Positions 31,775 through 59,930 of a DNA stretch of 64,000 nt are shown one piece after another. The notes below the pieces were generated by a model. The model was not told the origin of the DNA, made no database searches, and saw only the letters and a program-made list of their open reading frames with translations. Each line of letters begins with the position of its first letter. Within the stretch, counting starts at the first letter, position 1. Made by a program: the position numbers and the translations under genes. Origin of the DNA: a virus (taxonomy: Duplodnaviria; Caudoviricetes). The DNA is taken from positions 1 to 64,000 of the IMG/VR virus record IMGVR_UViG_3300015607_004925. One strand, written 5' to 3'.

Positions 31775-32074
31775 TTACCCGTGGAGCGCCGCGAGCGACG
31801 GCGGCGGCGTGGCCGGGTCGCCCGCGAGGGGCGGCTGACCGACGGTGGAACCGAGGGTGTCTGTCGGCGTCGGCGGTGACGTCGACAGCGGCGTTGTCCC
31901 GTCGAGGGCGGTCGGCACGGCGGCCGAGCCCTGCGCCATCGGCGGCGGTGCCGGCGGCACGTCCTTGCCGCTCTCGACGTCGGCCACGAACTGATCGACC
32001 TGTGTCGGCGGACCGAGTGCCAGCTTCTCGAGCGCCTTGGCGCAGCCCAGCTTGTACGCGGTGGCGAGCCTCAT
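31775..32074 (-). CDS. small putative internal head protein
   Basis: TAYKLGCAKALEKLA then Pro-rich tail. Confidence 0.65.
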   Translation of the reverse strand: MRLATAYKLGCAKALEKLALGPPTQVDQFVADVESGKDVPPAPPPMAQGSAAVPTALDGTTPLSTSPPTPTDTLGSTVGQPPLAGDPATPPPSLAALHG

Positions 32075-32622
32075 CACATCATCGCTCCTTGCAACGGCGC
32101 GTACACGAGGCGCTGGTTCTCGCGATCGTGCTGATTCTGCTGGTGCAGGCCGTACGCGAGCGCGCCAGCCGCGCCGAGCGCGCCGAGCGCGAGCGGGCGC
32201 TTCGCCGCACCCCATGCGCGCCCCGGCAACTCCTGCAGCTGTCCGGGCAGCGCGCGCGCCGCGGCCACGAGCGGGTGCGATGGCTTGGGCAGCGACACGA
32301 TCTGCGCGCCTTCGGGGGTCATCGGCGGCGGCGCCGGCGCATGCACGGGCGTGCGGACCCTGCTGTTCGGCGCCACGATGCGCGCGGTGGGCAGCGCCGC
32401 GACGGTCGCGGCGGCGGCCTTGACCACCTTCTCGAGTCCGGTGGCGAACTTCCGACCCTCGCCGAGGGCCGACTCGAGCGCGCGGCTCGTCTCGGAACGC
32501 ATCTTGTCGCCGAGCCCGGGCGTCGCGCGCGCGCTCGGGCGCGGCGCAGGCGCCTTCGGCGGGGGCTTGCTGGCGAAGCCTGGCCCAAGCGACGACATGA
32601 CCGCCGCGACCTTCGGGTCCAC
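32074..32622 (-). CDS. Gly-zipper putative virion protein
   Basis: PKVA; LALGALGAAGALAYG. Confidence 0.6.
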   Translation of the reverse strand: MDPKVAAVMSSLGPGFASKPPPKAPAPRPSARATPGLGDKMRSETSRALESALGEGRKFATGLEKVVKAAAATVAALPTARIVAPNSRVRTPVHAPAPPPMTPEGAQIVSLPKPSHPLVAAARALPGQLQELPGRAWGAAKRPLALGALGAAGALAYGLHQQNQHDRENQRLVYAPLQGAMM

Positions 32623-32624
32623 GG

Positions 32625-32990
32625 CTAGCCCACCGCGATGAAGAGGATCGACGCGGAGCCCGTGGTCGTGAGCAGCACCGCCGTCGGGAACGGCGTCGAC
32701 GGGTTGACCCACAGGAAGTAGCCGCCGACGGCGATCGGCCACGCATCCGCGCCGCCGTTGAACTTCACGGTGCACGAGCCTGAGAGCGCCTTGATCAGCA
32801 CGCCCTTCGCGCCTGGGCTCGCGAGAGTCCCGAGGTTGACCGCCTCGTCGGTGACCGCGCCCGCGTACGACCGGACGAAGTCGGCGCGGCCGGTATACGC
32901 CAGGCTGACCGTCAGGTCGACGGGCGCGGCGTTCGTTCCGTCCTCGAGAGGCAGCGAGGCTGCCCCAGCGACCTTGAAGTTCTGCGCCAT
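32625..32990 (-). CDS. putative structural protein
   Basis: CTATAAT 8 nt upstream; beta-rich. Confidence 0.6.
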   Translation of the reverse strand: MAQNFKVAGAASLPLEDGTNAAPVDLTVSLAYTGRADFVRSYAGAVTDEAVNLGTLASPGAKGVLIKALSGSCTVKFNGGADAWPIAVGGYFLWVNPSTPFPTAVLLTTTGSASILFIAVG

Positions 32991-33021
32991 ACCCTGGAAT
33001 TATAGGGGACGGTGCGAGATC

Positions 33022-33690
33022 TTACGTCGTGCGACGGTGGCCGCGGCTCAGGCCCATCACACCGAGCTTCGCGCGACCCGCGCGCATCATGCCGACTTGG
33101 ACCCATCCCTTGGCCGGGTCGTACTTCTGCGCGTAGCCGCCGGCACGGACTTCCCACGGGCCCTTGCACAGACCGAGGTGGTCGTAGCGTGTGTGCCCGT
33201 CTGGCTTGGGCGGCGGTTCCTGCCACGCGGGGTACTGGAAGTTCGACACGAGCACGTCGTCGATCGTGTACGTGTCCTGCTCGACGGGATCGCAGACCTC
33301 AGTCGCCCACCAGGTGCCCTGGTCATCTTGCGCCCCTCGCCGCAGCCATGGATCCGCAAGGGCCTCGAGGATCTCGTGAGACGCGGTCACGGTCCACGCC
33401 ACACCGTCTTGCGCATCCAGCTCCGGGAAGGTGAAGAGACACGGCAGGCCGGCGTCGGTCGTGTCGTGGAAGCCGAGGGCACCCTCGATCGTCGGTACCT
33501 TGCGCAGCTCGAGCCGCCATTCGTCATCGCGCGCGGGGTCCTGTGGTGTTGCCGCGCGGACCGTCGCGTCGACACCCCACACCGGGTAGAAGTGCTCGAG
33601 CACCTGGCGCTGCAACGCCGCGGCCGCCCGCACGATGTCCGCGTGCGTGACGTGCGTGTCGACGTTCACGATGACGACGCTGTTGCTCAC
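33022..33690 (-). CDS. zincin-like metalloprotease
   Basis: ALGFH...SHEILEALADP...EVCDPV. Confidence 0.75.
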   Translation of the reverse strand: MSNSVVIVNVDTHVTHADIVRAAAALQRQVLEHFYPVWGVDATVRAATPQDPARDDEWRLELRKVPTIEGALGFHDTTDAGLPCLFTFPELDAQDGVAWTVTASHEILEALADPWLRRGAQDDQGTWWATEVCDPVEQDTYTIDDVLVSNFQYPAWQEPPPKPDGHTRYDHLGLCKGPWEVRAGGYAQKYDPAKGWVQVGMMRAGRAKLGVMGLSRGHRRTT

Positions 33691-34079
33691 GGCGTGGCCT
33701 TGAGGTGGTGGCTCGTCATGAACGTGCGGGCGCGTTTCGCCGAGGCGGATTCCGGGGGCGCCATCGAGCCTGCGGGGTGCGCGGTCAGCTTGGTGTAGAC
33801 GGCTTGCAGCGCGCACGTCAGCGCGTCGTAGCCGTACTTCACGCCGATGTTTTCGAGCGCGGTCTCCCAGCCCGAGGAACCGGCCTGGACGATCGTCGAG
33901 ACGTCCTGGAAGACCGTCATGCCGATCTCGGGAACGGTCTTGCCGATGTCGACGGTCGCGCACGACACGACGAGGTCGCCGACGCTGCTACCGGACCCGG
34001 ATCCCGAGTTGCCGAAGGTGCCCCCGCAGCTCGGCGCGGTGGCGAAGAGGAGGACGATGAGCGCGAGGATGATCTTCAT
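33687..34079 (-). CDS. putative lipoprotein
   Basis: signal MKIILALIVLLFATAPSC. Confidence 0.7.
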   Translation of the reverse strand: MKIILALIVLLFATAPSCGGTFGNSGSGSGSSVGDLVVSCATVDIGKTVPEIGMTVFQDVSTIVQAGSSGWETALENIGVKYGYDALTCALQAVYTKLTAHPAGSMAPPESASAKRARTFMTSHHLKATP

Positions 34080-34091
34080 GACGAGGGCTCC

Positions 34092-34538
34092 TTACACCGC
34101 CGAAGAGGCAGGTGTGTTGCTGGGGGAGGTCGCGATGCCGTCGGTCTTGAGCGTGTGGACTGCTTGCTCGATGAACGTGATGAGCATCTTGATCGCCGCG
34201 TCCTGGTCTTGCAGCCCGAACACGACCTCTAGCTCCTTGAGCCCCTTGTCGCCGAGATGCGACTTCAAGGAGGCCAAGGCGGCGTCACGCGCGGCGAGCA
34301 GCGCGGCTTCGTTCGCCTTGTCTCCGAGCTTGGAGACGACCGTCTGCTCGGTCTCCTGGACGACGGCCATCGCGAGCTGGCTGAGCCGGAAGAGGATGCC
34401 CGCGGCGCGATCGTTCGTCGTCTTGGACTTCAGCCACGCGGGGAAGTGTGCGCTCGCCCAGGCGAGGAAGAGGCCGATGACGGGCACGACGACGCCCTTG
34501 AGGAACAGCATGCCGATGGTCTCGATCGTGTCCTGCAT
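34092..34538 (-). CDS. holin-like membrane protein
   Basis: N-terminal TM, AVV.ETEQ..V..L, IEQAV (LL-H-like layout). Confidence 0.6.
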   Translation of the reverse strand: MQDTIETIGMLFLKGVVVPVIGLFLAWASAHFPAWLKSKTTNDRAAGILFRLSQLAMAVVQETEQTVVSKLGDKANEAALLAARDAALASLKSHLGDKGLKELEVVFGLQDQDAAIKMLITFIEQAVHTLKTDGIATSPSNTPASSAV

Positions 34539-34807
34539 CAGAATTCCGCCTTTCGTGGGACCGCGACGGATCCCTTCTCCGCCGGGCGATCACCGTGCGT
34601 ATGCACGTAGCCGGCTTTGTTCTTGAGTGACGAGCGGTGCATCGGGACGATGGTCCCGAAGATCGCGCCGCCGAGCCGCTCGTTGTCGGCGCTGACCTGT
34701 CCCCCACACGCAGGACATGTGGGCAGCGCCGCCTCTTCCTCTGACGTCATGTACAGGTGCTCGAAACGGTGACCGCACGAACACACGTACTCCTTCAGCT
34801 TGGGCAC
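34538..34807 (-). CDS. FmdB-type zinc-ribbon protein
   Basis: P.L.EYVCSCGHRFE...CPACG. Confidence 0.8.
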   Translation of the reverse strand: MPKLKEYVCSCGHRFEHLYMTSEEEAALPTCPACGGQVSADNERLGGAIFGTIVPMHRSSLKNKAGYVHTHGDRPAEKGSVAVPRKAEF

Positions 34808-34844
34808 GCCCAATTATAGGCCCTTCCACACGCTTACGCGATAA

Positions 34845-36587
34845 TCAACACAGCTCCGACGTGGGGGTCACGTTGGTGTCGCCGGCGAACGGGTTTGCGG
34901 GGTCACTGGCCGTGATGGCAGTTCCGTCGTTGGCGATGACCGGCGTCACGGGAACAGAAGGCAATCCCGTCGCAGGGTCCACGCTCGTCGCTTGCGAGGG
35001 CGTCAGGGGGCGCATGTCAGGACCAAACACCGCGGCCTCCGCCTGCGTGACGACCGTGTCGATCGAGGCGAGGATCCCCATCAGCGGGTTGGTCGCGGTC
35101 GCGGGACCGAACAACGCTTCGAAGAAGGCGATGACCGTCGCCAGATCCGCGAGACGTGGTGCTCCGGCCACGATGCAGAGGCCGCAGACGTATTCGCCGC
35201 CGTCGAACGGAGGGCGCGAGGGATCTGTTTTGTCGTTGAGCCGCCGCGCCAGCTCGGCCATGAGGAACGCGTTGCCGCCCGTCTCACTCGACATCTGCGT
35301 GATGTACAAACTCGGGATCGGCGCCGATAGCGCCGTCGACAGCCGTTTCACGTCGTCGAGCAGCTCCTTCGAGCGCGCGGCGACGCGCTGGGTAGCACCG
35401 GCGGCGAGCGCGATCGCGTCGTTCAATTTGTCGAGCGGCGAGGTCGAAGGCTTGAGCAGCACGCGCGCTTCCTCGATGAGCGCTTGCGTGCCTGCTGCGA
35501 GCCCGGGAAACAGGTTGATCGCGGAACTCGTCGCGCTCCAGTTCGGTGCTTGTCCTGTTTGCTGCGGGGCGGGCGCTTTGGGCACGACCTTGACCACGCT
35601 CGAGAGCCGGCTGAATGGCAACGTGACCGCAGCCTCGTCGTTCTCGAAGACGTCGGTCTCCCACGTCACGCAGTAGAACTGTGGCAGCGTCGCGTCGATC
35701 GTCCCGTCCGTGTCGAGGAACGCCGAGTTCTTCCCGGTGCCGACCGCGACTACCTTGTAGTCACCGTTCGTCATGCCCTCGGTGAGCGTCTGCGTAGGGA
35801 ACAACTCGAGCACGCTCGTCGCCGCCTGCAGCTTGGGATTCGACGAGCGGATGACGGCGTAGCGCCGCACGCTGAAACGCACGCCCGGGAAGGATGCCAG
35901 CGTGATCGGATTCTTCGGCGGGTCCCAGTCGAGGCGGACGCCAACACCGGGCGACGCCGACGTACCTACGACACGCCCGACGACGTTTTGCGGTACGGGC
36001 AACGTGCGCGCCGCCATCGTGTCGCCGTTCTTCGGCTTGGCGATCAGGTCGAGCGTCGTCGCGGCGCTGGTGATGGTCGCGTACCGCGGCGCGCCGACGA
36101 GCAACGTGACCATCACGACGGCGTCGTGTTGGGCGTCATACTGCGGGCGGTTGTGGTCCGCGAGGTCCATGAGGGACTGCGCGAACGTGTTGTAGAAGCC
36201 CGCGTTGCCGCCGTTCTTGGTGACCATGGCGGCGTAGGCGTCTGCCGCGGCAGTGCCTGCAGGGCCCAGCGTGATATCGAGCGCAGCTTGGAGGTCGTTG
36301 ATTGTCGGCGGCAGGGCGGGCAGGGTCTTGACGGGCGGCGTCTTCACGATCGGGATCGGCAACATGTGTACCCGCCCGCCCATGAGGAGCGCTTGCAGCG
36401 TGTCGAGCAGCGCGTTCGCCACCGCCCGCGCGGCGTCGAGCGGCGACGGCAGCGACGGTGTCGTCGGAACCGAGAGCGATGCCGGGACCTCGAGCACCTG
36501 ACCAAGCAGGTCGGCGATCGCGGTGATTGCCGTCACGACCTCGGACGGGACGAGCTGGTTGGGGTTGAGCGTCGTCCAGTCGCTCAT
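34845..36587 (-). CDS. putative baseplate protein
   Basis: position downstream of spike gene; Fn3-like central segment. Confidence 0.5.
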   Translation of the reverse strand: MSDWTTLNPNQLVPSEVVTAITAIADLLGQVLEVPASLSVPTTPSLPSPLDAARAVANALLDTLQALLMGGRVHMLPIPIVKTPPVKTLPALPPTINDLQAALDITLGPAGTAAADAYAAMVTKNGGNAGFYNTFAQSLMDLADHNRPQYDAQHDAVVMVTLLVGAPRYATITSAATTLDLIAKPKNGDTMAARTLPVPQNVVGRVVGTSASPGVGVRLDWDPPKNPITLASFPGVRFSVRRYAVIRSSNPKLQAATSVLELFPTQTLTEGMTNGDYKVVAVGTGKNSAFLDTDGTIDATLPQFYCVTWETDVFENDEAAVTLPFSRLSSVVKVVPKAPAPQQTGQAPNWSATSSAINLFPGLAAGTQALIEEARVLLKPSTSPLDKLNDAIALAAGATQRVAARSKELLDDVKRLSTALSAPIPSLYITQMSSETGGNAFLMAELARRLNDKTDPSRPPFDGGEYVCGLCIVAGAPRLADLATVIAFFEALFGPATATNPLMGILASIDTVVTQAEAAVFGPDMRPLTPSQATSVDPATGLPSVPVTPVIANDGTAITASDPANPFAGDTNVTPTSELC

Positions 36588-36730
36588 CGCGTCGTCTTCT
36601 CCGCAAGTGCGCGCACGCGTGCGGCACGCAGGCGCTTCTTCTCCATGTCGATACGAACAAGGCGGCCATGTAGCTCGGCGAGCTTACCGAGCACGACCCC
36701 GATCGCCGGCTGACCTTGCCACTTAGTCAT
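36584..36730 (-). CDS. small basic protein (48 aa)
   Basis: overlaps both neighbours (MTKWQGQP...TTR). Confidence 0.5.
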   Translation of the reverse strand: MTKWQGQPAIGVVLGKLAELHGRLVRIDMEKKRLRAARVRALAEKTTR

Positions 36731-38129
36731 TGCGTACCTTCGTCGAGACGTATGGCACCTGGACGCCGACCTTCGCCGCGAAGACAGCGATCTTGGCCAT
36801 CACGGCCGCGAGCCCGATCGGATTCGACGGCACGAGGTTGCCGATCGCGCTCGAGAGGTCGCCGAGAAACGCGGCGAAGTCGATGAGGAACGTATCGAAC
36901 TTCGGGATCGGGTGTTGCCCGTTCGGTCCGAGGATGACTTGCGCGCCGTCGACCTTTGCCTGGCCCGTGGCCTCGAGCTTGGCGGCGGCGCGCGCGACGA
37001 GCGCGATGTCGCCGGTTGCAGAAGCCTTCCAGTCACCGTCGACGGCGTGCGTGTCATCATCGCCGATGCTCGTCGTGCGCTTGCCGGCGACCACCGCGGT
37101 CTGGTCGCCGCCGACGCCGTGCGTGTGATCGCTGCCGACGTACTGCGTAGCAGCTCCTGCCGTCGACCACGTTCCCGACCCGCCGATGCTCGTCGAGTGG
37201 TCGCCGTCGATGAGGTGCGCGTAGTTCCCCTTGATCGCGTGCGTCTCGTCACCGCCGACGGCGGTCGCGCGCGCACCGGCGATGTCGTGACGCTGTTCGG
37301 CTAGCCCGCCGGCGCCTGACGAGATGTCGACGCCGCCGTCGCCGTAGAGCTGGACGCGTCCGTCCGATCCGGCATGCAGGCGGAAGAGGATCTTGCCCTC
37401 GGGTTCGACGACCTTGAAGTCGAGCACGTCACCCGTCGCGCCAAGGTCAAGCTGGATCGTCCAGTGCTGCTCATCGCGCCCTGTCTGCGTGGTCTGGCTT
37501 GCACCTGCACGCAGCACGAAGGACGTGCGGCCTTGCTTGTTCTCCATCCGCCACTGTCCGAAGTCCGAGAAGCCGTCCATGACGCGCGCGACGTGCCGGA
37601 GCAGTCCTTGCGCGGCGAACGATTGCACCTGCGCGCTGGGCGCGCCGAGCAGCGACAGCCCGCCTTCGAGCACGGCGACGTGATTGCCGAGCGTGCCAAC
37701 CTGCGCCCAGTCGCCACCGCCCATATCCGTCGGTGCATGCGGCGGTCGGTAGTTGTTCGAGCCCTCGGTCGGCTGGGTCGCGTCGTCTTGACCAACGCCC
37801 GCGACACCAGTGAGCGTCGGCGCCGGGATCGCGGACTGTGCGGGTCCGACGAGGTCAAGGATGCCGATGATGACCGGCATGCCGAGGTCCCACGACACTA
37901 CGACCTGTGTGCCCGTTTGCAGGTGATCGAAGCTGCCTTGCGTGTGCCGCATCTGCGGCACGTCTTGCAGCGGTCGACCACTGTCTGTGCGTACCAGGGC
38001 TGTGTGTGTGCCCGAGTTGTACGCGATGACCGTGCCGATCTCCCAGTTCCGCCGTCCCGTCGGGCGATCGCGCGCGGCTACGCCTGCGCCAAGGTTGGCG
38101 GCGCCTCGCTTTTGAAGCGGATCGCTCAC
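36723..38129 (-). CDS. baseplate central spike (gp5/VgrG-like)
   Basis: N-terminal OB-like region; 8-residue VGGD.T..I.G beta-helix repeats. Confidence 0.8.
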   Translation of the reverse strand: MSDPLQKRGAANLGAGVAARDRPTGRRNWEIGTVIAYNSGTHTALVRTDSGRPLQDVPQMRHTQGSFDHLQTGTQVVVSWDLGMPVIIGILDLVGPAQSAIPAPTLTGVAGVGQDDATQPTEGSNNYRPPHAPTDMGGGDWAQVGTLGNHVAVLEGGLSLLGAPSAQVQSFAAQGLLRHVARVMDGFSDFGQWRMENKQGRTSFVLRAGASQTTQTGRDEQHWTIQLDLGATGDVLDFKVVEPEGKILFRLHAGSDGRVQLYGDGGVDISSGAGGLAEQRHDIAGARATAVGGDETHAIKGNYAHLIDGDHSTSIGGSGTWSTAGAATQYVGSDHTHGVGGDQTAVVAGKRTTSIGDDDTHAVDGDWKASATGDIALVARAAAKLEATGQAKVDGAQVILGPNGQHPIPKFDTFLIDFAAFLGDLSSAIGNLVPSNPIGLAAVMAKIAVFAAKVGVQVPYVSTKVRND

Positions 38130-38142
38130 CCCGCCTACGCTA

Positions 38143-38478
38143 TCACGGACGCCGCGCGGTGCTCGTCGTGTTGGGGGTCGGGATGTTGTCGCTGCTGCGG
38201 GCGCCCTCGAACTTCTTGTCCGACCAGTAGAATGAAACGTAGAAGTTGAGGACGACGACGCTGTCGAACACGAGCAGCGCTGTCGTGAAGAACTGCCACG
38301 TCGTCTGACCTGTCAGCGCGAGCACCAGCAGCGTGTTGGTGTAGGTGAAGAGTAGGCAGCCCGCGAAGATGGCCAGGCTCACCGGGTTCTTGCGGAACTT
38401 CCAGCCGCGGTAGAACCGCACCGCAAGCGGCAGCCACGCAAGCGCCAACACACACGCCAGGACGATGACAGCGGTCAT
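38143..38478 (-). CDS. 3-TM membrane protein
   Basis: three hydrophobic helices. Confidence 0.65.
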   Translation of the reverse strand: MTAVIVLACVLALAWLPLAVRFYRGWKFRKNPVSLAIFAGCLLFTYTNTLLVLALTGQTTWQFFTTALLVFDSVVVLNFYVSFYWSDKKFEGARSSDNIPTPNTTSTARRP

Positions 38479-38711
38479 GGTTCTTTGGAAGATACCTTGT
38501 CCGCGTTGCCATCGTCGATCCGAACGAACGGCGCCGTCGGGTCTCGTCCGAACTTGGCACGGTAGGCGATCATCGCGCTACGGCGCAGTGCGTCGATTTC
38601 CGCGTTGGTCTTGATGAAGAAGTTCTCGCTGCGCCGACCGCACTTGACTTCGGTGAAGACGATCCACGCGATCACGACAGCAAGCACGGCGGTGATGAGC
38701 CAGGGGGTCAT
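38475..38711 (-). CDS. single-TM protein
   Basis: WLITAVLAVVIAWIVF; ATGA overlap. Confidence 0.6.
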   Translation of the reverse strand: MTPWLITAVLAVVIAWIVFTEVKCGRRSENFFIKTNAEIDALRRSAMIAYRAKFGRDPTAPFVRIDDGNADKVSSKEP

Positions 38712-38719
38712 CGGGTCAC

Positions 38720-39013
38720 CTACCTTTGGTGCTCCGGCAGGTGGGCCGGCGCACGGTCGTTCGTAGGTTTGGCGTGCCACCCGTCTACGGTCTTGGCCAT
38801 GATGGTCACGGCGGTGAGCAGGTTCTGGATCGCTTCGGTGAAGCGGTCCATCCGCTTTTCGACGCGCCACATGAACCACAGCGCGACGAACACAGGGAAT
38901 CCGAACTCGCGAATGACGCCTAGTGTGTTGTCGGCGCCGCTGCCGTTCGGGTCGGCAGCGCCGGTCCCGAACAGCACGATCGCGAACAGTAGGGCGAGTC
39001 GGAGGGGCTTCAC
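38720..39013 (-). CDS. YvrJ/BhlA-like holin
   Basis: I.EFGFPVFVALWFMWRVEKRMDRFTEAIQNL. Confidence 0.7.
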   Translation of the reverse strand: MKPLRLALLFAIVLFGTGAADPNGSGADNTLGVIREFGFPVFVALWFMWRVEKRMDRFTEAIQNLLTAVTIMAKTVDGWHAKPTNDRAPAHLPEHQR

Positions 39014-39015
39014 GG

Positions 39016-39783
39016 CTAGGCGTCCACCACGCCGGGGGAGGCCAGGCTCTCGTCGACGTCACCGCTCGACAGGAATGTGCCGTCGACGAAGCTGAGCACC
39101 GAGTCGATGCTCGTCGCCGTGATGCCGTCGCCCGAGGCATGCGGCCGAACGCCCGCCGGCGTGTCGGCGCCGAACGGCAGGAGGCGGTCGCTCATGCCCG
39201 AGACGTTCTCGAGCACGAGGTTCTGGCCGGCGTTCCAGCCGATCGCGTAGCTGGTGAGCATCGACAGCTCGGCGTAGAAGCCGCCACAGTAGCCGTGCGT
39301 CTTGTCGCGGAACACCGCGCCCAGTCCGAACGGGATGAGGAACAGCTCGCTGTCGAGGTTGATGAAGAACTTCTTGCCTGCCGGGTTCGAGTCCGCGGCT
39401 TGGTCGTCGAACTGGCTGGGGTCGATGCCGCCGGCGACCGCGTTGTGGTAGAGGACGCGCAGCAGGTTGCGGCCGTTCACGAAGAGGCGGCCCATCGTCC
39501 ACTGTGTCTGGGCCTTCCCTGAGACGTAGAACGAGCGCCCCGAGCCGATGGCCATCATCGGCTGCGTCGGCTTGGTCTGCGTGAAGTTCACGGCCTGCAG
39601 CATGCCGATCGCGAGCAAGCTCGCGGCGCCACCTTCGCGGAGACCGTGCTTGCGCGCGGGACCTGCCATCACGAGCGTGTCGTCGGGATGCGCCGCGGTG
39701 TACGCGGCGTTGTCCATCACCCGCTCGACGTAGCTCTCCTGGAACTTCCAGGTGTCGAAATTTTTCACCACTCCGAGCGCCAT
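39016..39783 (-). CDS. tail tube protein
   Basis: IGMLQ.VN.TQ...QPMMAIGS.R.F.V.GK; near sheath gene. Confidence 0.75.
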   Translation of the reverse strand: MALGVVKNFDTWKFQESYVERVMDNAAYTAAHPDDTLVMAGPARKHGLREGGAASLLAIGMLQAVNFTQTKPTQPMMAIGSGRSFYVSGKAQTQWTMGRLFVNGRNLLRVLYHNAVAGGIDPSQFDDQAADSNPAGKKFFINLDSELFLIPFGLGAVFRDKTHGYCGGFYAELSMLTSYAIGWNAGQNLVLENVSGMSDRLLPFGADTPAGVRPHASGDGITATSIDSVLSFVDGTFLSSGDVDESLASPGVVDA

Positions 39784-39785
39784 GT

Positions 39786-40385
39786 TCAGGCTCCTTGTGT
39801 GCCGCGTGCGATCTCGAGGCCCTTGACGTTACCGATTGTAGCGCCGAGACCTGCGAGCAGGGTTGAAAGTGGGACGCCAAGTGGTCCCGTGACAGGATGC
39901 CCGACGAGCTTGTCGATGACGTGGCCGACGCCGTGGCCGACGAGGCCGCCGCCGAGCGTGCCGAGGCCCTGTCCCGCGACGTTGCGCGCGATCTCGCCGC
40001 CGGTCTGTTTACCGCGGACGCCCTCGACGACCGGCCACGCGAGGCCGCCGAGGTCGCCGCCGACGACGTCGCCGAAGTGACCTGCCATCTTCGGGCCGAC
40101 CATCTGCGCACCCGCAACCGCCCACGGTGGGATGTCGGTCATCGCGGCGTCGATGTTGTACGGCGCGCCCGGCGGGATGTTCCGCTCGGCCCGTTCCGCC
40201 TTCTCACGCAGGAGACCGCCGGTGACGCCGCCCGTGACGCCGCCAAGCAGTGCGCCGACGTCGGGCGACAGACCGATCCGTGGACCGAGCGTCTTACCGG
40301 CGAAGCCGCCGAGCGCCGGCCCCGCCACCGCCGGAAAAATGGCGGCGAGGCTCGCGCGCTTGATGAAGAAGCGTTCGACGGACAT
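39786..40385 (-). CDS. Gly-zipper K-x-A protein
   Basis: IKRA, PKMA; multiple GxxxG helices. Confidence 0.65.
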   Translation of the reverse strand: MSVERFFIKRASLAAIFPAVAGPALGGFAGKTLGPRIGLSPDVGALLGGVTGGVTGGLLREKAERAERNIPPGAPYNIDAAMTDIPPWAVAGAQMVGPKMAGHFGDVVGGDLGGLAWPVVEGVRGKQTGGEIARNVAGQGLGTLGGGLVGHGVGHVIDKLVGHPVTGPLGVPLSTLLAGLGATIGNVKGLEIARGTQGA

Positions 40386-41113
40386 CAGCCCATCATGCCC
40401 TGGGGCTGTGGGGGCTGCTGCATCTTCTGGCCGAGCGCGCCGCCAGCCATCGATGCGGCCTGGTCGAACGCGGCACCGCCGAGCCCGCCCGCGATGCGCG
40501 GCGCGACCTTGCCCGCGATGCCGCCGAGGGCTTTGCCTGCGACGCCGCGACCGAGCGCGCCGAGGCCCGCGCGCGCGAGCGTCGGGCCCGCGATCGCGCC
40601 GAGCATCGGCAGGAAGGCGACCTTGATGCCGAGCGCGCCGAGCGCGGCTTCGGCGCCGGCGGTGTAGTGGTCGGTGAGCGCGCCGTACTTGCCCGCATGT
40701 CCGTATATGAGCTTCTGTGCCTTGGGCCACAGATTGTAATCCATGCGGCTCAGTGCTTCGGCGGCGGCAGGTTGAGCAAGCGCCGCGGTATCGCGCGCGA
40801 CAGTGTCGATTCCGTGCAGTTGAGAACTGAGGTTTCCGTGCAGCCCGCCCACCCCGGCACCGATGACCGCGTCGCGAAGCGGATGCTCGTCGCCACTGAC
40901 CAGGCTGGCGAGTCCACCGACGCCCGCGCCGAGCGCGGCGCCACCGAGCGGCGAACGCATGAGCGCGCTCGCGTCGAACGCCAGCTTCTCCTCGCGGCCG
41001 TGGTTCTCGCGCGACACGACGATGTTTACGCCGACGCCGCCGTTCTCGCGAAGATGGTGCGAGGCACCTTTCACGAGGTCGGCGATGAACTTGTCGAAGA
41101 AGGCGTCGGACAC
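40385..41113 (-). CDS. Gly-zipper K-x-A protein
   Basis: EKLA, IKVA; HYTAGAEAALGALG. Confidence 0.65.
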   Translation of the reverse strand: MSDAFFDKFIADLVKGASHHLRENGGVGVNIVVSRENHGREEKLAFDASALMRSPLGGAALGAGVGGLASLVSGDEHPLRDAVIGAGVGGLHGNLSSQLHGIDTVARDTAALAQPAAAEALSRMDYNLWPKAQKLIYGHAGKYGALTDHYTAGAEAALGALGIKVAFLPMLGAIAGPTLARAGLGALGRGVAGKALGGIAGKVAPRIAGGLGGAAFDQAASMAGGALGQKMQQPPQPQGMMG

Positions 41114-41128
41114 GGTGGTCTCCTTGGG

Positions 41129-43501
41129 CTACGCCACGAGGTGCAGCTCGATGACGTTCAGGGGCTTGGGCAGGCCGATGGCGAGGTGGGTGATCACCCG
41201 GTCCGCCGACGTCGGCGAGACGCCGATGTCTGTGATGGCGAACGAGGTCAGCGGCGCACCGATCTTGGCGATCGTGCGGAGCTTGAGCAGGTCACCGCCG
41301 GTGTTCAGGGCGCCCTGGAGGAGCGTGAGCGTCTCCTGGGTCACGTTGTACTGGCCGAGGAAGTCCTCGAGGATGTCGACGAAGAACAGCGACACGAAGT
41401 CGAAATTCTTTACCACCGAGTACTCGCCGCTCTCGAGCGTCGACGGGTCGGTGGTCAGCTGGTGGACCGCGAACGGCAGCGACGAGGGCGTCTTCTGCGC
41501 GAACACGAACCAGCCGCCGTTCGACAGGTCAGTGAGCTGCGTGTCGGTGAAGTACGTGTTCGAGTCGTAGATCTGCGACACGCCGGCGATGCCGAGGTTG
41601 GTGAAGCCCTGCTGCGACGGCAGCCCGGCGGTCATGCCGCCGATCGCGCACGCCAGGTAGAAGCCGGGCTGCTGGGTGCCGCCGGTGACACCAGCGACAT
41701 CGCACTTGTCGGGCCACGCGAGGACCGTGCGCTTGCTGTTGAACGACTGCGCCACCGCGATCAGCTCGCTCACCTGCTGGCTCTTCGAGAGCGTGCGAAC
41801 GATCTGGTAGTTGACGGTCGTCGCGCCGACGAGTGCGCTGCCCGCGCGCTTGACGCCGTGTGGCAGCTCGTTCTCGACCGACGAGCTGTCCTGGCCGTTG
41901 TTGACGATCTGGATGCGCTGATCGCTGAGCACCGCCTGCACGACGAACGACGTGAAGACGCTCGCCGTGGTGATCGTCGCGTTGGGGTCGACAGGGATCT
42001 GGACGATGTCGCCGGCGGCGACGGCGCTCGACACGAACGTTCCGCTCGCGTCCTTGAGGATGAGGTAGTAGTCCGGCGCCGCGGCCGTGACCACGCCGGT
42101 GAGCGCCGCGGAGGCGACGCGCACCGTAGTGCCGTCGGCCTCCGTGATGCTCGCCGTGATGTTGCACGAGCCTGCGCCGGCGAACGGCGACTCGACGTCG
42201 ATCTGGAGATCGGTTGCCGACAGCACCGCCGCGATGTTGTAGTTCGCGACCACGATCTTGGTCGCGTCGCTGGTGACCGTGACCTTCAGGATGTCACCCG
42301 GGATGACGCCGCTCGTGATGAGCGACGTGATGCCCGTCAGCGTCACCTTGGTGATCTCGCCGCCACTCGAGCTTGTGAGCTGGAGCGGGTTGCCCGTCGC
42401 CGACGGCTCGACGATCGTCTTGGTCACCGGCAGCGTGCCGTTGCCGATGACGACACGGAAGCGCTGCGGGCGGCCGCGCGTGTTGTCGGGCAGCGCCAGG
42501 CCGACGCAATCCGTGTTCCACATCGCGAAGACCGTCACGTCGGTCGTCAACGGGACGATCGCGTAGACGTCCGAGCGCGCGGAGATGTGGTCGCGCACCG
42601 TGACGTGACCCGTGAGATCGTCGGTGAGCACGCCCACGAACTGCACGACCGAAGTCGTGTTCTCGAGCGCGACGAACGCGCCGGCTGCGAGCGGGTTGCG
42701 AGCGTCGATGCGGCCGATCTTCGACACGATCTCGTCCGCGGACTCGACCGTGTCGAGGTCGCCGAGGTCCTGGCGCAGCGCGCGGTACTGCTCGTAGACC
42801 ACCGCGTACGACACCGGCTTGGAGCCCTGGCCCGTCACCGTGATGCTCACGCCGCCGGCGATCTTGACGATGTTGCCGGTGACCGTGACGTACGAGGCGT
42901 CGATCTGGACGTCGTTGACCGTGCGCTCGATGTACCAGTGCTGATTGGCCGCCGGCGTGAACGTGCCGCCGGTGAAGTCCGACGTGGTGAGCAGGCGCGT
43001 GTCGCTGACCACGGAGGCCACCGTGAGACGCACGATGTTCGAGCCCGCGTCGACGATCACCAGCCGGTCGCCCGGCTTCACCTGGCCTGCGCCTGCCGTG
43101 TTGAACGTGGTCGGCGACGTCTCGGCCGTGTCGAACTGGTTCGGCGTCAGGGACGCCGTCGTGCCCTTCGTCCCGCTCACGATCCGCGCGCGCGCCTGGT
43201 CGAAGAAGATCTTCACGGAGGCGCTGTCGAGCACGGCGCCGACGGCGTTGTTCGGTGGCTCGGCCACGGTGATCACCGCAGGGCCCGTCGGCAACGCGAC
43301 GTCCGGCGACGGCTCGAGCGTGCCGTACGCGGCCGTGACCAGGATGTCCGCCTTGTCCGCGTAGTCCGTAGTTCCGGGCGTGAAGTAGTCCTGGATGTGG
43401 TACGCGGGGCCGACCACCAGACAGTTCAAGTCCGGGTTCGTCGGCGTCACCGTCGGCGTGGCCAGGTCCTGATACACGAGTACGACTGGGCGGATGGCCA
43501 T
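41129..43501 (-). CDS. contractile tail sheath protein
   Basis: C-terminal sheath motifs (HQLTTD, SVVKNFDFV, PKPLNVIELHL). Confidence 0.85.
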   Translation of the reverse strand: MAIRPVVLVYQDLATPTVTPTNPDLNCLVVGPAYHIQDYFTPGTTDYADKADILVTAAYGTLEPSPDVALPTGPAVITVAEPPNNAVGAVLDSASVKIFFDQARARIVSGTKGTTASLTPNQFDTAETSPTTFNTAGAGQVKPGDRLVIVDAGSNIVRLTVASVVSDTRLLTTSDFTGGTFTPAANQHWYIERTVNDVQIDASYVTVTGNIVKIAGGVSITVTGQGSKPVSYAVVYEQYRALRQDLGDLDTVESADEIVSKIGRIDARNPLAAGAFVALENTTSVVQFVGVLTDDLTGHVTVRDHISARSDVYAIVPLTTDVTVFAMWNTDCVGLALPDNTRGRPQRFRVVIGNGTLPVTKTIVEPSATGNPLQLTSSSGGEITKVTLTGITSLITSGVIPGDILKVTVTSDATKIVVANYNIAAVLSATDLQIDVESPFAGAGSCNITASITEADGTTVRVASAALTGVVTAAAPDYYLILKDASGTFVSSAVAAGDIVQIPVDPNATITTASVFTSFVVQAVLSDQRIQIVNNGQDSSSVENELPHGVKRAGSALVGATTVNYQIVRTLSKSQQVSELIAVAQSFNSKRTVLAWPDKCDVAGVTGGTQQPGFYLACAIGGMTAGLPSQQGFTNLGIAGVSQIYDSNTYFTDTQLTDLSNGGWFVFAQKTPSSLPFAVHQLTTDPSTLESGEYSVVKNFDFVSLFFVDILEDFLGQYNVTQETLTLLQGALNTGGDLLKLRTIAKIGAPLTSFAITDIGVSPTSADRVITHLAIGLPKPLNVIELHLVA

Positions 43502-43576
43502 CGCTAGATCTCCGTATCCATGGGGGTTGCGGAAATTATAGTGGGACCGCGCCGATTTCCCGACCGAGACCTTCGC

Positions 43577-44290
43577 CTACTTGCGGTCGCGCCAGCCCAG
43601 GGCGATGTCCTCGAAGAACGTCGTCGCGTCATCGTTGCCGGAGGCCACCACCGCCATCGCGATCTCGTTGAGCAGCGGGGCCGTCGGCTTGTTCGTCCAT
43701 CGCATGGGGTACTGGACGTTGAACGTGACCGCGGTGATCCACTGGTCCTTGTCGCGGGTGTTCGGCTGGGTCCGGCCGACGACGACCGGCGTCATGTCGT
43801 GGAACCCGAACTTGGCCTGGATGAGGTCGCTCGAGGCGTGGAGGAACACGCCCACGATGTCGCCCAGGATCGCGCTCTCGGCGCGCTTGCCCGCGATGCA
43901 CTCGATGAGGATCGGCACGACCTGCAGATCCCAGAACCCGACGAGGCCCGTCTTGAGGTTCTGGCCCGCGCGGTCGCCGAGCACGACGCGGCCGTGCGTC
44001 TGGTCGTCGCAGTCGATGAACACCGCGGGTCGGAAGTTACGATGCTCCTTGTCCTCGTTGAACGCGCTCTCGACGGCGAGCTTGGTCTTCTTGATGTCGG
44101 GGTCCCACCGCCACTGGAAATCAGGCGGCACCACGCTCGCCGCGAACCGACGGCGGATCACCTCGACGAACACGCCGAGTACCGCGAGCTTGGAGCCCGG
44201 ACGAATCGAGACGTGCTGCGCGCCTTCGGGCGAGGGTTGCAGCTTGGGGTCGGGCACGAAGCCCGGCGGTGGGATCGGCTTTTCGGACAT
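43577..44290 (-). CDS. tail terminator/neck protein
   Basis: position between neck and sheath; RPAVFI motif. Confidence 0.6.
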   Translation of the reverse strand: MSEKPIPPPGFVPDPKLQPSPEGAQHVSIRPGSKLAVLGVFVEVIRRRFAASVVPPDFQWRWDPDIKKTKLAVESAFNEDKEHRNFRPAVFIDCDDQTHGRVVLGDRAGQNLKTGLVGFWDLQVVPILIECIAGKRAESAILGDIVGVFLHASSDLIQAKFGFHDMTPVVVGRTQPNTRDKDQWITAVTFNVQYPMRWTNKPTAPLLNEIAMAVVASGNDDATTFFEDIALGWRDRK

Positions 44291-45138
44291 CAGTAGAGCG
44301 GTGGGACCGCCTCCGGGTCGACGAGGATCTTGTACTCGATCGAGTTGCGCCCGAGCAGCGACGCCGTGAGCTTCTGGTGCACCGGCACGCTCTTCAGCTC
44401 GGTGTGGTGAACGCGCTGCACCTGGTAGCGGTCGTTCCGCACCAGGTCGACGACGATGTCCTTGTACTCGATGAGCGGGTAGTCGAGGACGTTGAAGTCG
44501 GCGTACTTGACGTCGTTGTCGCCGTCGGAGGTCATCTTCGTCTCGACCGACGCGGCCTCGCGGCGGCCGCGGATCAGCGTGGGCGCCCAGTACCCGCCGG
44601 CGTACGACGTGCCGAAACACGTCAGGCAGTGCTCGAGCGTCGCCTGGCCTGTCGCCGCGTCCCAGCACGTCGGGCAGCGCTCACCCCAGCGCCGGCGCTT
44701 GAGTACGACGAGCGGCACGCCGTTGAGTCGCCGGTAGCCGGTAGCCTGGTCGCGGAGGATCTTGCGCTTGAGCAGGCGCGTGCGCGCGTCGAGCCCGGGC
44801 TCGACGGGCGTCGGCTCGCACGTGAACGCGTTGGCGGTCCCCGACGGCGGCGTGACTGTGATCAGGTAGTAGACCACGCGCGCGAGCGAGAACAGGTTCG
44901 TGCCTTCGCGCCCGTTGCTGCCCGCCGGCGCCGGCGGGAAGTTCCAGGTGTCCTTGTCGTCGAGGAAGTTGTATGCGTCGCGCAGGCCGACGGCGATCGT
45001 CTCCCACGGACCCGACGGTGACTCGGCCCGCGCGATGTCGACGAAGTGCGCGCCTGTCTCGTCGGCGTTGATGTCCCACTGGACGAACACCGAGTTCGGA
45101 AAGAGCGCCGTCGTGCGGCGGATCTCGACGCTCGCCAT
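44290..45138 (-). CDS. head closure/neck protein
   Basis: KRRRWGERCPTCWD...CLTCFGTSY.GGY. Confidence 0.65.
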   Translation of the reverse strand: MASVEIRRTTALFPNSVFVQWDINADETGAHFVDIARAESPSGPWETIAVGLRDAYNFLDDKDTWNFPPAPAGSNGREGTNLFSLARVVYYLITVTPPSGTANAFTCEPTPVEPGLDARTRLLKRKILRDQATGYRRLNGVPLVVLKRRRWGERCPTCWDAATGQATLEHCLTCFGTSYAGGYWAPTLIRGRREAASVETKMTSDGDNDVKYADFNVLDYPLIEYKDIVVDLVRNDRYQVQRVHHTELKSVPVHQKLTASLLGRNSIEYKILVDPEAVPPLY

Positions 45139-46175
45139 CAGCCCAACACGGCCGGGCCGCCGGCGGGCGTCCCGAATCCGCCTCCGACGCTCGTCGTGTC
45201 GACGGCGCCATCCACTTGGTCGAACGCGCGCCGGATGCGCTGCGAGCCCTCGTCGCCGAAGCCGACGGGCGATGACTTGCGCGTCGGGCGCTCCTCGTAT
45301 GGGTTCGGCGTCGGGCCGCGATCCTCGTGCGTCGAGTGGCTGTCGGTGCCCCAGAGCTGCCAGCCGCCGAGTTTTCCGCGTTGGATTGCGTCAGCGAGTC
45401 CTCGCCCCGTCCCTACGTAAGACTGCGCCAGGTTTTTCATCTGTTGCCCGCGCCCGATGAGTCCTTGGAATGCGTTCGCAACCGACGGAGAAAGAGGGTG
45501 TGGTGTCGATTGCAGTGCTGCGCGAAGACGCTGTCCTGCGAGGGCACGGCGTGACAGCGCTTGGATGACCGGGTTTTCCGAGAAAGCCAGCTCTCCGGTT
45601 TGGAAGGCCCGCGGTAGTGTCGCGACCTTGTTGAGGCCGCTGGTCATGCGTCCGGGTTCGTCGGAGAGGTTGACCTGGCCCTGGTGACGGAACAGGTCGG
45701 CGAAGTACGTCGCGGCCTGCTCGTCGGCGGGGCGGCCGTCGCGCGCGCGGGCGAGCGCGCTGTCGGCCGATGTGGCCGAGTGGTAGTGCGGGCTCGTCGA
45801 CGGGTTGTCGCCGGTGCTCGGGTCGCCGCCGTTCATGCCTGCGTTGAAGTCGGCACGTTTGATCGGGATGGGTCGTGCGCACGTGCCGTAGTGCTTCTCC
45901 TTGCGGCACGAGGTGCACAGATTCTCGGCAGAGAGCTTGCGCATCGGCTCGCTGCGTGTGTGCGCCTGCTCGTGCGCGCTGAACAGTTGCGACACGTCGA
46001 ACGGTGTCGTCGGCGGCTGGAGCTGCTGCTGTGTCTGCTGGGATACCGGCTTGGGTGCCCGCGACTGCAACGTCGCGCTCTGCTGCACCACGGGATGTGT
46101 GGCCGCGGGGAACGCGAGCTTGAGCCGTGTGAGCGCGGCGAGCTGGCCATCGGCGTAGCGGCTCTCGAGGTTCAT
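45138..46175 (-). CDS. K-x-A-segmented putative internal head protein
   Basis: RYADGQLAALTRLKLA; KRA, KVA, KLG; small CxxC..H..C knuckle. Confidence 0.65.
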   Translation of the reverse strand: MNLESRYADGQLAALTRLKLAFPAATHPVVQQSATLQSRAPKPVSQQTQQQLQPPTTPFDVSQLFSAHEQAHTRSEPMRKLSAENLCTSCRKEKHYGTCARPIPIKRADFNAGMNGGDPSTGDNPSTSPHYHSATSADSALARARDGRPADEQAATYFADLFRHQGQVNLSDEPGRMTSGLNKVATLPRAFQTGELAFSENPVIQALSRRALAGQRLRAALQSTPHPLSPSVANAFQGLIGRGQQMKNLAQSYVGTGRGLADAIQRGKLGGWQLWGTDSHSTHEDRGPTPNPYEERPTRKSSPVGFGDEGSQRIRRAFDQVDGAVDTTSVGGGFGTPAGGPAVLG

Positions 46176-46564
46176 GGCGAGATGACGTCTCCTGGTAGGG
46201 GCATCGATGACGTGGCGTAGTCGTCCTCGTTGCGCTGTAGCGCGCGGTCGATGACGCTGCGCTGGCGGCGGCCGGTGTCGGCCGGCTCGCCGGCGGCGGC
46301 GCCGGTTCCGTCGTGCGAGGTCGACGCGCCCATGCCCACGTTGAACGCGACCTTCGCCGCGTCCACGCCGACGGAGCCCGTCGGGCTGGCGGGAACGGTC
46401 GACGTCACCTTCGGCGGGCCCGGCGGCCGCGCGGGCCCGGGCAGCCCCGGCGCGCTCGGCGTCTTGATGCCGACGGAGCCGAGCGAAGGCTGAGGGATCC
46501 CTAGCCCGAGCGCCGCGAGCGCGGCGCGGGCGCCTTCCTTGTGCCTGAGCGAGAGCAGCGACAA
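46172..46564 (-). CDS. putative internal head protein (partial paralogue of 45138-46175)
   Basis: RHKEGARAALAALG; KVAFNVGMG; TTG start tentative. Confidence 0.6.
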   Translation of the reverse strand: MSLLSLRHKEGARAALAALGLGIPQPSLGSVGIKTPSAPGLPGPARPPGPPKVTSTVPASPTGSVGVDAAKVAFNVGMGASTSHDGTGAAAGEPADTGRRQRSVIDRALQRNEDDYATSSMPLPGDVISP

Positions 46565-46578
46565 GGGGTCCGCATGCC

Positions 46579-46758
46579 CTACTTGCCGAGGGTCTTGAAC
46601 AGCTCGTTGAGTGGGTTGGCGGCGGCGGTCTTCGGAGCCTCGACGAGGCCGAGCGCCTGGGCCTCCTTGATGACCTCGTCGGTCGAGGTGTAGCCGACCG
46701 CTTCGAGGGCCTTCTGGACGCCGTAGTCGTGCGCGGTCTTCAGGTGCGTGTTCGACAT
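46579..46758 (-). CDS. small K-x-A protein (59 aa)
   Basis: MSNTHLKTAHDYGVQKALEAVG...KEA...KTA; CTATACT 6 nt upstream. Confidence 0.65.
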   Translation of the reverse strand: MSNTHLKTAHDYGVQKALEAVGYTSTDEVIKEAQALGLVEAPKTAAANPLNELFKTLGK

Positions 46759-46779
46759 GGTGTAAGTATAGCGAATCCG

Positions 46780-47508
46780 CTACCCGATCACTTCCTGGCC
46801 GTACGAGCCGTCGGCACGGCCCGGCGCCATCCGGTCGTAGGTCGTGAAGTTGTCCCACAGCCAGTCGGGCATGCCGGCGCGCGCGGCGCTCGTGCCTTCC
46901 TGCTGCGCGGGGTATTGGACGCGCGCGGTGCCGTGGCTTTGCTCGGGCCCCTTCGGCTGCACGCCGGGCTCGGCGCCCATCGGGCCCGCGAGCTTGAGCT
47001 GCGCGAGCGCGGCGCGAGCGCCCGTTTCATAGGCCGTTTTCAGCGCTTTGGACGTTATGCTGCCTGTGTAAATGTTGTCAGGAAGACGCGGCAGTCCATC
47101 CATTCGACGTTCGTGTTGTTGGTAGTGATGGTCGCGCGTGAGTCCGACCTCTTGTCTACCGTTATACGTTTGAACTGCCGCACCCGGGTTCATGTTTACG
47201 TGATACGATGGACTGGCTTGTAGTTTGTTCCATACGCCTTGTGCGGCAGGTGAGACCGATACTCCACTTTGGAGTGTGCCGTTTGGTAAGCGGCGCATAG
47301 TTTCGCCATATAGCTTTCGGCCAAGACCCATTCCCCGAAATTCCGGGGCGAGTTCCGCGTGCGCTATTTCCTGTAGTCCATTACCTGCCTGCGACGGGCG
47401 CAGATGCATGTGGCCTGCAGGCCGAGCACCTACAAACGCTTCAAACCCTTCCACGCTGGGCACGAGACGAAACGCTTTGCGTAACCGTGAACCAGCCGAC
47501 TTGTTCAT
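46780..47508 (-). CDS. GNAT acetyltransferase fused to putative head-targeting segment
   Basis: LAPEFRGMGLGRKLY acetyl-CoA motif; KSA ... KTAYETGARAALAQLKLA. Confidence 0.75.
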   Translation of the reverse strand: MNKSAGSRLRKAFRLVPSVEGFEAFVGARPAGHMHLRPSQAGNGLQEIAHAELAPEFRGMGLGRKLYGETMRRLPNGTLQSGVSVSPAAQGVWNKLQASPSYHVNMNPGAAVQTYNGRQEVGLTRDHHYQQHERRMDGLPRLPDNIYTGSITSKALKTAYETGARAALAQLKLAGPMGAEPGVQPKGPEQSHGTARVQYPAQQEGTSAARAGMPDWLWDNFTTYDRMAPGRADGSYGQEVIG

Positions 47509-57002: not shown

Positions 57003-57584
57003 CTAGCGGCTCGCCGCCTCCACGAGCGCCTGGCCACGCTTGAAGCCCTCGACGAAGACGTCGCTGGCGAGCTTGTAGACCTGCGCCATCTGGTCGTTCC
57101 AGCCCTTGACGTAGGCGTCCTCGCCGAGCTTCTCGAGCTGAGCGATGGTCGTGGCGTAGCCCAGCTCCGCGGCCTCCTTGACGAGGTCCGGGTTCTCGGC
57201 GGCGAACTTCTCGAACGAGCCGTCGCTCGCGGTCTTCACCGGCGCGGGCTGCGCGGCAGCGACCTTGCGGGCGGCCTCGTCGTACTGCGCGGCACGCGCC
57301 ATGAAGCCGTCGCAGATCGCTGCGCCGTACAGCTGCGCCTCCTTGACGAGCGCCTCGTGCTCGGCCTTCGAGAGGTCGGCGGCGATCTTCGTCATGTCCT
57401 CGATCGGCGAGGTCTGGCTCGCCGTCTTGGTGGACGCGTCGGGCGCGGTCGCCTCTTTGAGCGCCTGCTTGAGGCGCTCGCCCGCGTCACTGGTGGGAGC
57501 AGTCGTCGACGGAGCGGGCGTCGCCGCCGCGGTCTTCGTCGTGGGCGCTGCGCCCATCCTGGTGAGTGCGTCTGAGAGCTTCAT
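57003..57584 (-). CDS. scaffolding-like protein
   Basis: helical, Ala-rich; 11 of 16 Lys are in K-x-A. Confidence 0.65.
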   Translation of the reverse strand: MKLSDALTRMGAAPTTKTAAATPAPSTTAPTSDAGERLKQALKEATAPDASTKTASQTSPIEDMTKIAADLSKAEHEALVKEAQLYGAAICDGFMARAAQYDEAARKVAAAQPAPVKTASDGSFEKFAAENPDLVKEAAELGYATTIAQLEKLGEDAYVKGWNDQMAQVYKLASDVFVEGFKRGQALVEAASR

Positions 57585-59927: not shown

Positions 59928-59930
59928 GGC

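Follow-up and report, generated by a model that had tools for sequence, protein, structure and literature searches.

A short helix repeated on unrelated late proteins of an uncultured phage as a candidate label for the head-assembly core

Why do otherwise unrelated late proteins of one tailed phage share a short helix, usually at their N-termini? The question is raised by 64,000 nucleotides of DNA (the window; IMG/VR record IMGVR_UViG_3300015607_004925), which form the opening 64 kb of a complete genome of 184,915 bp from an uncultured phage (direct terminal repeats, 66% GC). The initial annotation of the window quoted six peptides with this helix and read it as a candidate capsid-targeting signal resembling the cleavable capsid-targeting sequence (CTS) of the T4 internal proteins. 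We call the helix the tag and count its positions from the conserved Tyr or His (position 0). The late block consists of minus-strand genes from ~29.7 to 64 kb and continues to ~78 kb; its reading frames were fixed by profiles of GC content at third codon positions (GC3), and several of its genes were identified from their likeness to those of Salmonella phage Arash, a myovirus of 181 kb and the closest cultured relative that the phage collection yielded.

Each of the six quoted peptides is encoded on the minus strand, in a frame that is coding by GC3, and the single coordinates given for four of them (32074, 46175, 46564 and 46758) are the start codons of the respective genes. The observation is confirmed and is larger than first described: the whole genome holds nine canonical copies of the tag, six inside the window and three beyond it, together with two degenerate ones. 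The regular expression [YH]..G...AL..[LVI], applied to six frames of the whole genome, gives 12 matches against 1.7 expected (a maximum of 5 in 200 shuffles); restricted to the minus strand between 29 and 72 kb, it finds 9 where 0.23 are expected. A profile made from the copies scores the nine at 24-31 bits, the next best open reading frame (ORF) reaching 10.9, and with leave-one-out profiles the omitted copy ranked 9th to 11th among ~3000 ORFs. An independent whole-genome search with a hidden Markov model, a check proposed together with the original observation, returned exactly the nine canonical copies.

The relatives extend this picture. IMG/VR contains at least 138 contigs with a related capsid protein, the best 80 of which are 69-95% identical. 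All 166 tag matches of at least 10-12 bits found in 129 related loci lie on the late-gene strand, and the weak matches in the same loci, which serve as an internal control, split about evenly between the strands. Whole-genome searches of five relatives yield 7-12 copies per genome, always on a single strand; in the four genomes checked for this, the copies lie within a late block of 36-47 kb. Next to the RNA polymerase genes, tags are still found in relatives whose polymerase chain is only ~46-50% identical, and the rest of each carrier diverges. The carriers found are spread over a clade of uncultured phages. The profile was partly built from sequences later found with it and is in part circular; we consider it unlikely that the result is due to this circularity because of the strand control, the leave-one-out runs and a profile made from the relatives only.

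The tag is a helix of ~18-20 residues with fixed spacing. The form starting at the initiator Met is M-x-L-x-x-A-Y-x-x-G-x-x-A-A-L-x-x-[L/F]-K-L-A, and the consensus of 106 distinct copies is (M)-x-[LIV]-x-x-A-[YH]-x-x-G-x-x-A-A-L-x-[RK]-[FLY]-[GK]-[LVI]-[KGA]. Gly at +3 and Ala at +7 are invariant in these copies, a set collected with the profile, so the invariance is partly circular. The conserved residues form a stripe (L-4, A-1, Y/H0, G+3, A+7, L+8, L/F+11); on a helical wheel, L-4, A-1, Y0, G+3, A+7, F/L+11 and A+14 fall within an arc of ~120 degrees with the small residues in its centre, and the stripe would therefore suit tight packing on another helix. AlphaFold2 models the tag of a 59-aa carrier as a helix of residues 4-21, which ends at a G-Y-(K/T)-S-(A/T) turn. 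The N-terminal location noted originally holds for most copies: an initiator-Met start is found in 8 of the 11 here and in ~52 of 64 distinct copies in the relatives (~80%; the start codon 0-5 codons upstream of the copy), the Tyr/His of the N-terminal copies here being mostly residue 5 to 7 (residue 10 in the 59-aa protein). The additional statement that the tag stands just after a K-x-A site is true in a loose sense; the internal copies follow K-x-G, K-x-S or nothing.

That the carriers are unrelated can be stated more strictly. With the tag masked, 106 carriers fall into 13 unrelated families (BLASTP, E-value below 1e-4), and database matches add more families. A single paralogous family is not seen: between the families, similarity does not extend beyond the tag, one short motif in two neighbouring families excepted. 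Most carriers are 59-440 aa long and are Pro/Ala/Gly-rich or contain Gly-zipper segments; many are disordered without a Gly-zipper. PHROGs and Pfam give no family for the tagged proteins beyond Gly-zipper matches and one weak GNAT match, and the ESM Atlas gives no match for the 59-aa protein. A profile search of 5.8 billion proteins returned only unnamed, mostly metagenomic matches without Pfam domains, apparently members of the same families.

Position +11 gives an indication of a common reader, and it is new evidence beyond the observation made originally. Among 27 genomes that have two or more tags, 25 are uniform at +11 across families: it is Leu in 8/8 copies in this genome and in 3/3 in its nearest relative, and Phe or Tyr in 10/10 copies of the L001-type genomes. 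The capsid-protein tree implies two independent changes at +11, this genome and its nearest relative being nested in the Phe/Tyr group and the second Leu group forming a separate, fully supported clade. Drift in GC content is ruled out as the cause of the +11 type (51-66% GC in genomes of the Leu type, 55-68% in those of the Phe type), as is recent gene conversion as the cause of the uniformity (the tags are 36-64% identical in DNA). Since unrelated families have the same residue and change on the same branches, the pattern points to a label that is read by one shared binding partner.

The same pattern bears on the view that the copies are a relic, either of fast-evolving paralogues or of a mobile, exon-like N-terminal cassette, and have no common function today. 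The tagged genes are indeed clustered (46-47.5 kb and 66-71 kb), as tandem duplicates would be; the neighbouring families of genes 46172-46564 and 45138-46175 share a second motif, K-x-A-(D)-F-N-x-G-M-x-G; and codon identity between tags is somewhat above expectation (180 vs 135). However, parallel changes at +11 in all families on the same branches need a shared constraint, G+3 and A+7 do not vary (in the profile-selected, hence partly circular, set of 106), and the tag is conserved over the polymerase divergence given above, whereas the remainder of each carrier is not. We regard a relic as very improbable.

The second regular property is what stands behind the helix. That the tag is often followed by K-x-A, as noted at the outset, is borne out: a K-x-A starting at +10 to +16 is found in 57% of copies, and K-x-[AG] in the same range in 83/106 distinct tags (78%); in control windows taken from these proteins the figure is 1-3%. 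The structural block shows a 1.73-fold enrichment of K-x-A and none of the reversed A-x-K. It is significantly dense in the scaffold-like helical protein (57003-57584, minus strand; hereafter the scaffold), in the protein with a prohead-protease domain (57646-59400, minus strand; its C-terminal half is scaffold-like and K-x-A-rich), in other head-module proteins and in one degenerate tag carrier, and it is rare in sheath and tube. In the alignment of the fast-evolving scaffold, four of the six invariant columns belong to K-x-A sites. The major capsid protein (54541-55479, minus strand; 42% identity with Arash gp226) contains only one K-x-A, the K-E-A of residues 31-33, which is near the N-terminus and invariant in 26 relatives; it is placed where the removal of an N-terminal propeptide would fall. 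The pattern fits a protease site, and we treat K-x-A/G as the putative cut motif and the 57646-59400 protein as the candidate enzyme that would cut behind the tag. The C-termini of the scaffold and of this protease protein are similar (QALVEAASR and EALGAVALASR, respectively), which recalls the C-terminus shared by protease and scaffold in herpesviruses.

One could propose from these data that no targeting is involved, the helix with K-x-A/G being an extended recognition element of the protease or a pro-peptide that keeps membrane-active Gly-zipper proteins inert up to their cleavage by the phage protease. The site behind 78% of the tags would be explained in this way, several cargoes do have the Gly-zipper segments typical of membrane-inserting proteins, and the scaffold has a tag-like helix of its own that ends in an invariant K-x-A. 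However, most K-x-A sites of the scaffold and the protease protein have no preceding helix, so recognition does not require one; many cargoes lack a Gly-zipper and are just disordered; and the switching position +11, which precedes the Lys of the site by 1-5 residues, is easier to reconcile with a docking surface than with a protease subsite. We consider this proposal unlikely.

What could the shared partner be? We scanned head proteins only, for alignment columns in which genomes of the Leu type and of the Phe/Tyr type share no residue; the protease protein was represented by only three Leu-type sequences. Such columns number 0/308 in the capsid protein, 0/146 in a 155-aa protein, 1/116 in a 117-aa protein and 4/164 in the scaffold. 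Two of the four scaffold columns are hydrophobic positions ten residues apart in its long C-terminal helix (AlphaFold2 predicted local distance difference test, pLDDT, above 90), a distance compatible with one side of a coiled coil; in this genome they are M166 and V176, counting from the ATG at 57584. The first is M/L in genomes with Leu tags and V/T in those with Phe/Tyr tags; the second is V/M/I with Leu tags and mostly small (chiefly Ser) with Phe/Tyr tags, so that at both positions the change in size is opposite to that of the tag. Both positions switch on those branches of the tree on which the tag does. The parallel change is suggestive only, and it marks the scaffold as a candidate partner. 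The capsid protein is ruled out as a co-varying partner by its 0/308 columns; it could bind the invariant parts of the tag. As changes that track the tag are found in the scaffold and none in the capsid protein, an address for the head core appears most plausible.

A weaker version of the tag had also been reported in the scaffold itself, and this is weakly supported by hhalign, whose best match within the scaffold profile (P 0.027) is DAYVKGWNDQMAQVYKLA (57066..57119, minus strand, in gene 57003-57584). This tag-like helix ends in an invariant K-x-A and holds the first of the two switching hydrophobic positions; the second lies ten residues downstream, just outside 57066..57119. The 59-aa protein as a whole and the scaffold C-terminus are not collinear: hhalign pairs the second helix of the former with another scaffold segment (P 0.009).

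We believe there to be about an even chance that the tag is a helix of the T4-CTS type through which diverse small proteins dock on the head-assembly core (on the scaffold, probably) and which is removed at K-x-A/G. The tag would then be a common address label on about ten otherwise unrelated proteins. During head assembly it would bind one partner, most likely the prohead scaffold or the protease core, and the long C-terminal helix of the scaffold is a possible docking surface. Docking would recruit small, largely disordered or Gly-zipper proteins and one GNAT-like domain into the particle, whereupon the prohead protease would cut at K-x-A/G behind the helix and free the cargo, as T4 gp21 does with the CTS. 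A more specific version is possible but tentative: the helix would mimic, or pair with, the C-terminal helix of the scaffold and load some ten proteins into the prohead, in a large clade of phages with an RNA polymerase of their own; label and receptor would co-evolve as lock-and-key pairs (Leu with Met/Val, Phe/Tyr with Val/Ser), and clipping would occur at Lys-x-Ala. Of the capsid-targeting reading offered originally, a discrete and modular tag of late proteins stands, with its adjoining K-x-A/G, its conservation in orthologues and its concerted change; binding, the identity of the partner, packaging and cleavage are what we infer from the sequences.

A number of observations weigh against this proposal. 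The family of the 59-aa protein keeps Val at +11 and ignores the switch, and the 59-aa protein of this genome has lost its K-x-A. Three of the 11 copies are internal. The hydrophobic moment of the tags is unremarkable and not separable from that of shuffled versions; since it is the narrow stripe that is conserved, the word "amphipathic" would overstate the tag. The cargoes are not recognisable as enzymes, one GNAT-like fusion excepted. The covariation with the scaffold comprises only two independent switches, in columns picked post hoc and in the fastest-evolving protein. Salmonella phage Arash has no tag in its 34-kb structural locus or in its whole genome, and the virion proteome of Arash, the one cultured relative found for which such data exist, is therefore uninformative on tagged proteins; no cultured phage with the tag was found. 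Finally, the region of tail genes encodes six of the nine canonical copies, which lie between the homologues of two neck-region genes (47505-47984 and 44290-45138), between the sheath (41129-43501) and tube (39016-39783) and beyond the VgrG-like baseplate spike (36723-38129), all of them identified as Arash homologues.

The last observation is what one would expect if the tag were an assembly or oligomerisation module of a tail, neck or tail-lumen complex, either docking on a tail component or bundling with itself. A tape-measure protein was not recognised in the tail module of the window, and the stripe of small residues (G+3, A+7, A+14) suits any tight helix-helix packing. However, the genes of the T4 internal proteins are likewise scattered outside the head cluster; the K-x-A/G adjoining the tag corresponds to the motif that abounds in the scaffold and protease proteins and is scarce in sheath and tube; five copies stand among the two RNA polymerase genes next to the head module; and, among the head proteins scanned, the columns that track the tag are mainly those of the scaffold. 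We find a tail or neck module rather unlikely, and prefer the head-core address.

Targeting to the host membrane or to a secretion route, for lysis or superinfection exclusion and independent of the virion, is also conceivable, considering the N-terminal location and the Gly-zipper or hydrophobic C-terminal segments of several carriers. But the tag lacks a hydrophobic core region (hydrophobicity averages close to zero, and the moment is as given above) and has no lipobox and no site resembling that of signal peptidase; all tagged genes belong to the late structural block, and the link with K-x-A points to the head protease. Such a role is highly improbable.

The copies in the window, all on the minus strand, are as follows. 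The copy at 32000..32071 is the N-terminus of a 99-aa, Pro-rich and probably disordered protein (gene 31775-32074), with the ATG one codon upstream. That at 40610..40681 is internal to a 242-aa Gly-zipper protein (gene 40385-41113), between K-Y-G and K-V-A; all members of this family have the tag at an internal site, where it is preceded by a Gly-zipper insert of variable length (0 to ~150 residues) and followed by K-[VE]-A. The copies at 46101..46172 and 46487..46558 are the N-termini of a 345-aa protein (gene 45138-46175) and of a ~130-aa protein (gene 46172-46564, with a TTG start; its orthologues begin M-S-L-L-R-Q). The copy at 46675..46746 lies near the N-terminus of the 59-aa protein, which has three helices (gene 46579-46758), and that at 46975..47046 lies inside a 242-aa protein (gene 46780-47508), downstream of a GNAT-like domain. 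Relative to Arash the tagged genes are insertions, four of them located between the gp233 and gp234 homologues and a fifth, accompanied by an untagged neighbour, between sheath and tube. Beyond the window, the three canonical copies (Y/H at 67799, 68251 and 70845) lie between and after the RNA polymerase genes, and the two degenerate N-terminal ones (ORFs 66235-67605 and 70052-70528) neighbour the tagged genes of that region.

The GNAT-like domain is encoded by a segment of lower GC (~55%, especially 47060-47500) and is fused in frame upstream of the tag. It is supported by Pfam (E-value 0.0077), by an Atlas score of 0.95 to clusters of phage acetyltransferases and by a PDB match (E-value 0.025). 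The fusion occurs only in this genome, the orthologues of gene 46780-47508 beginning with the tag, and we take it as a natural hint that the tag may suffice to carry a foreign protein into the capsid.

Several further features of the carriers deserve a record. Three tagged families (45138-46175, 46780-47508 and, in the genome, 67620-67814) end in hydrophobic-[L/I]-Gly-COOH (PAVLG, QEVIG and AKVLG); the ending is kept in orthologues and is otherwise found in ~3 of ~500 ends of coding-like ORFs in the genome, and it may serve as an additional signal at the C-terminus. Conserved in the 345-aa family is the stretch C-T-S-C-R-K-x-K-H-Y-G-x-C, possibly zinc-binding, which is also present in the 136-aa tagged database protein P0006. 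The tagged 157-aa product of genome positions 70495-70965 has an N-terminus (MPFRSESQRRFLFAKHP) that matches PHROG 1375 (E-value 9e-5), therefore the tag there follows another small conserved module. For gene 39786-40382, the orthologues in relatives begin with the tag M-I-[KS]-R-A-Y-...-F-G-V-R-E-A; here the tag tail E-R-F-F-I-K-R-A seems to be left after a new start (weak alignment, E-value 0.24), and the protein has apparently lost its tag through N-terminal truncation. Gene 29758-31770, in which the initial annotation had suspected a weaker version of the tag, is rejected as a carrier: its N-terminal helix (K-L-A-I-L-G-x-T-Y-A-R-A-L) is conserved but different, has no profile score and is kept, as a different helix, in the orthologue. 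The product, of 670 aa, has a weak P-loop match (AAA_17/AAA_18).

As regards the neighbouring genes, the untagged small head-module proteins encoded at 56715-56999, 59388-60380 and 60377-61642 also combine Gly-zipper segments with K-x-A, and the head of this phage therefore seems to hold many small proteins of membrane type. Gene 49171-52458 encodes a 1095-aa protein with many copies of an Ala/Thr/Gly-rich repeat of ~20 residues (LTAQTGALAIAGTDAGLRATRL); in Arash the corresponding position is taken by gp229 (2548 aa), and the 1095-aa protein is probably a fibre. The two RNA polymerase chains are encoded just past the end of the window. In Arash, the homologues of both are among the most abundant virion proteins (PMC10585845).

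How does the proposed label compare with known systems? The CTS of the T4 internal proteins was reportedly treated by Mullaney and Black in 1996. It is an N-terminal peptide of 10-20 residues found on IPI, IPII, IPIII and Alt (PMC3012670, PMC7411985). The likeness is that a short N-terminal peptide is common to unrelated proteins and directly precedes a short motif, a prohead-protease site in T4 and a putative one here, and that the genes of the carriers do not cluster with those of the head but are scattered; one carrier is an enzyme. The differences are that the T4 peptide has by eye no resemblance to the tag consensus, which suggests a functional analogy, not homology; that the cut motif is L/I-x-E in T4 vs the presumed K-x-A/G here; that T4 has about four carriers vs 9-12 per genome here; that the carriers here are mostly disordered or of the Gly-zipper kind, with three copies internal; and that packaging and cleavage are proven for T4.

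In phage P1, the N-terminal ~30 residues of DarB suffice to direct a protein into the capsid of a myophage (PMC9024508). An N-terminal stretch thus serves there as a capsid address; the signal was demonstrated for no protein but DarB, the paper describes no protease site next to it, and the sequences are not alike. Giant phiKZ-like phages such as SPN3US package many internal proteins together with a virion RNA polymerase; a short motif marks the site at which N-terminal propeptides are removed, and a role in targeting to the prohead has been proposed for these propeptides (PMC7411985, PMC5694885). Like them, the phage described here is large and encodes an RNA polymerase, and its tags adjoin a short, putative cut motif; however, the phiKZ-like propeptides have ~110-130 residues, no common short consensus and the cut motif A-x-E. 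The presumed Lys-x-Ala code differs from the Glu-ending prohead-protease motifs described for T4 and SPN3US.

More remote parallels exist as well. In the herpesvirus assemblin/scaffold system the protease is fused to a scaffold-like region and the cut motif is (V/L/I)-x-A|S, and the P22 scaffold has a C-terminal coat-binding region. The fusion of protease and scaffold, the x-A ending of the (here presumed) cut motif and a conserved C-terminal scaffold helix followed by a putative cut site are similar here, but these systems concern the scaffold itself and not a label copied onto other proteins. The encapsulation peptides of microcompartments and the cargo-loading peptides of encapsulins are short terminal helices that dock cargo inside a shell through a flexible Pro/Ala/Gly-rich linker. 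The short terminal helix on varied cargo and the type of linker are shared with the tag; however, these compartments are cellular, no protease removes their peptides, and the latter are unrelated to the tag in sequence.

How the labels of T4 and P1 are read is described only as an interaction with the prohead core (PMC3012670, PMC7411985, PMC9024508). The clade reported here offers richer data: about ten carriers per genome, more than 100 distinct labels and a lineage-specific switch at one position. This switch points to specific residues of a candidate receptor, and therefore the question of what reads the label becomes testable. If confirmed, the tag would be a small tool with which proteins of choice could be loaded into a phage head, and would mark which of the uncharacterised proteins of these phages reach the host.

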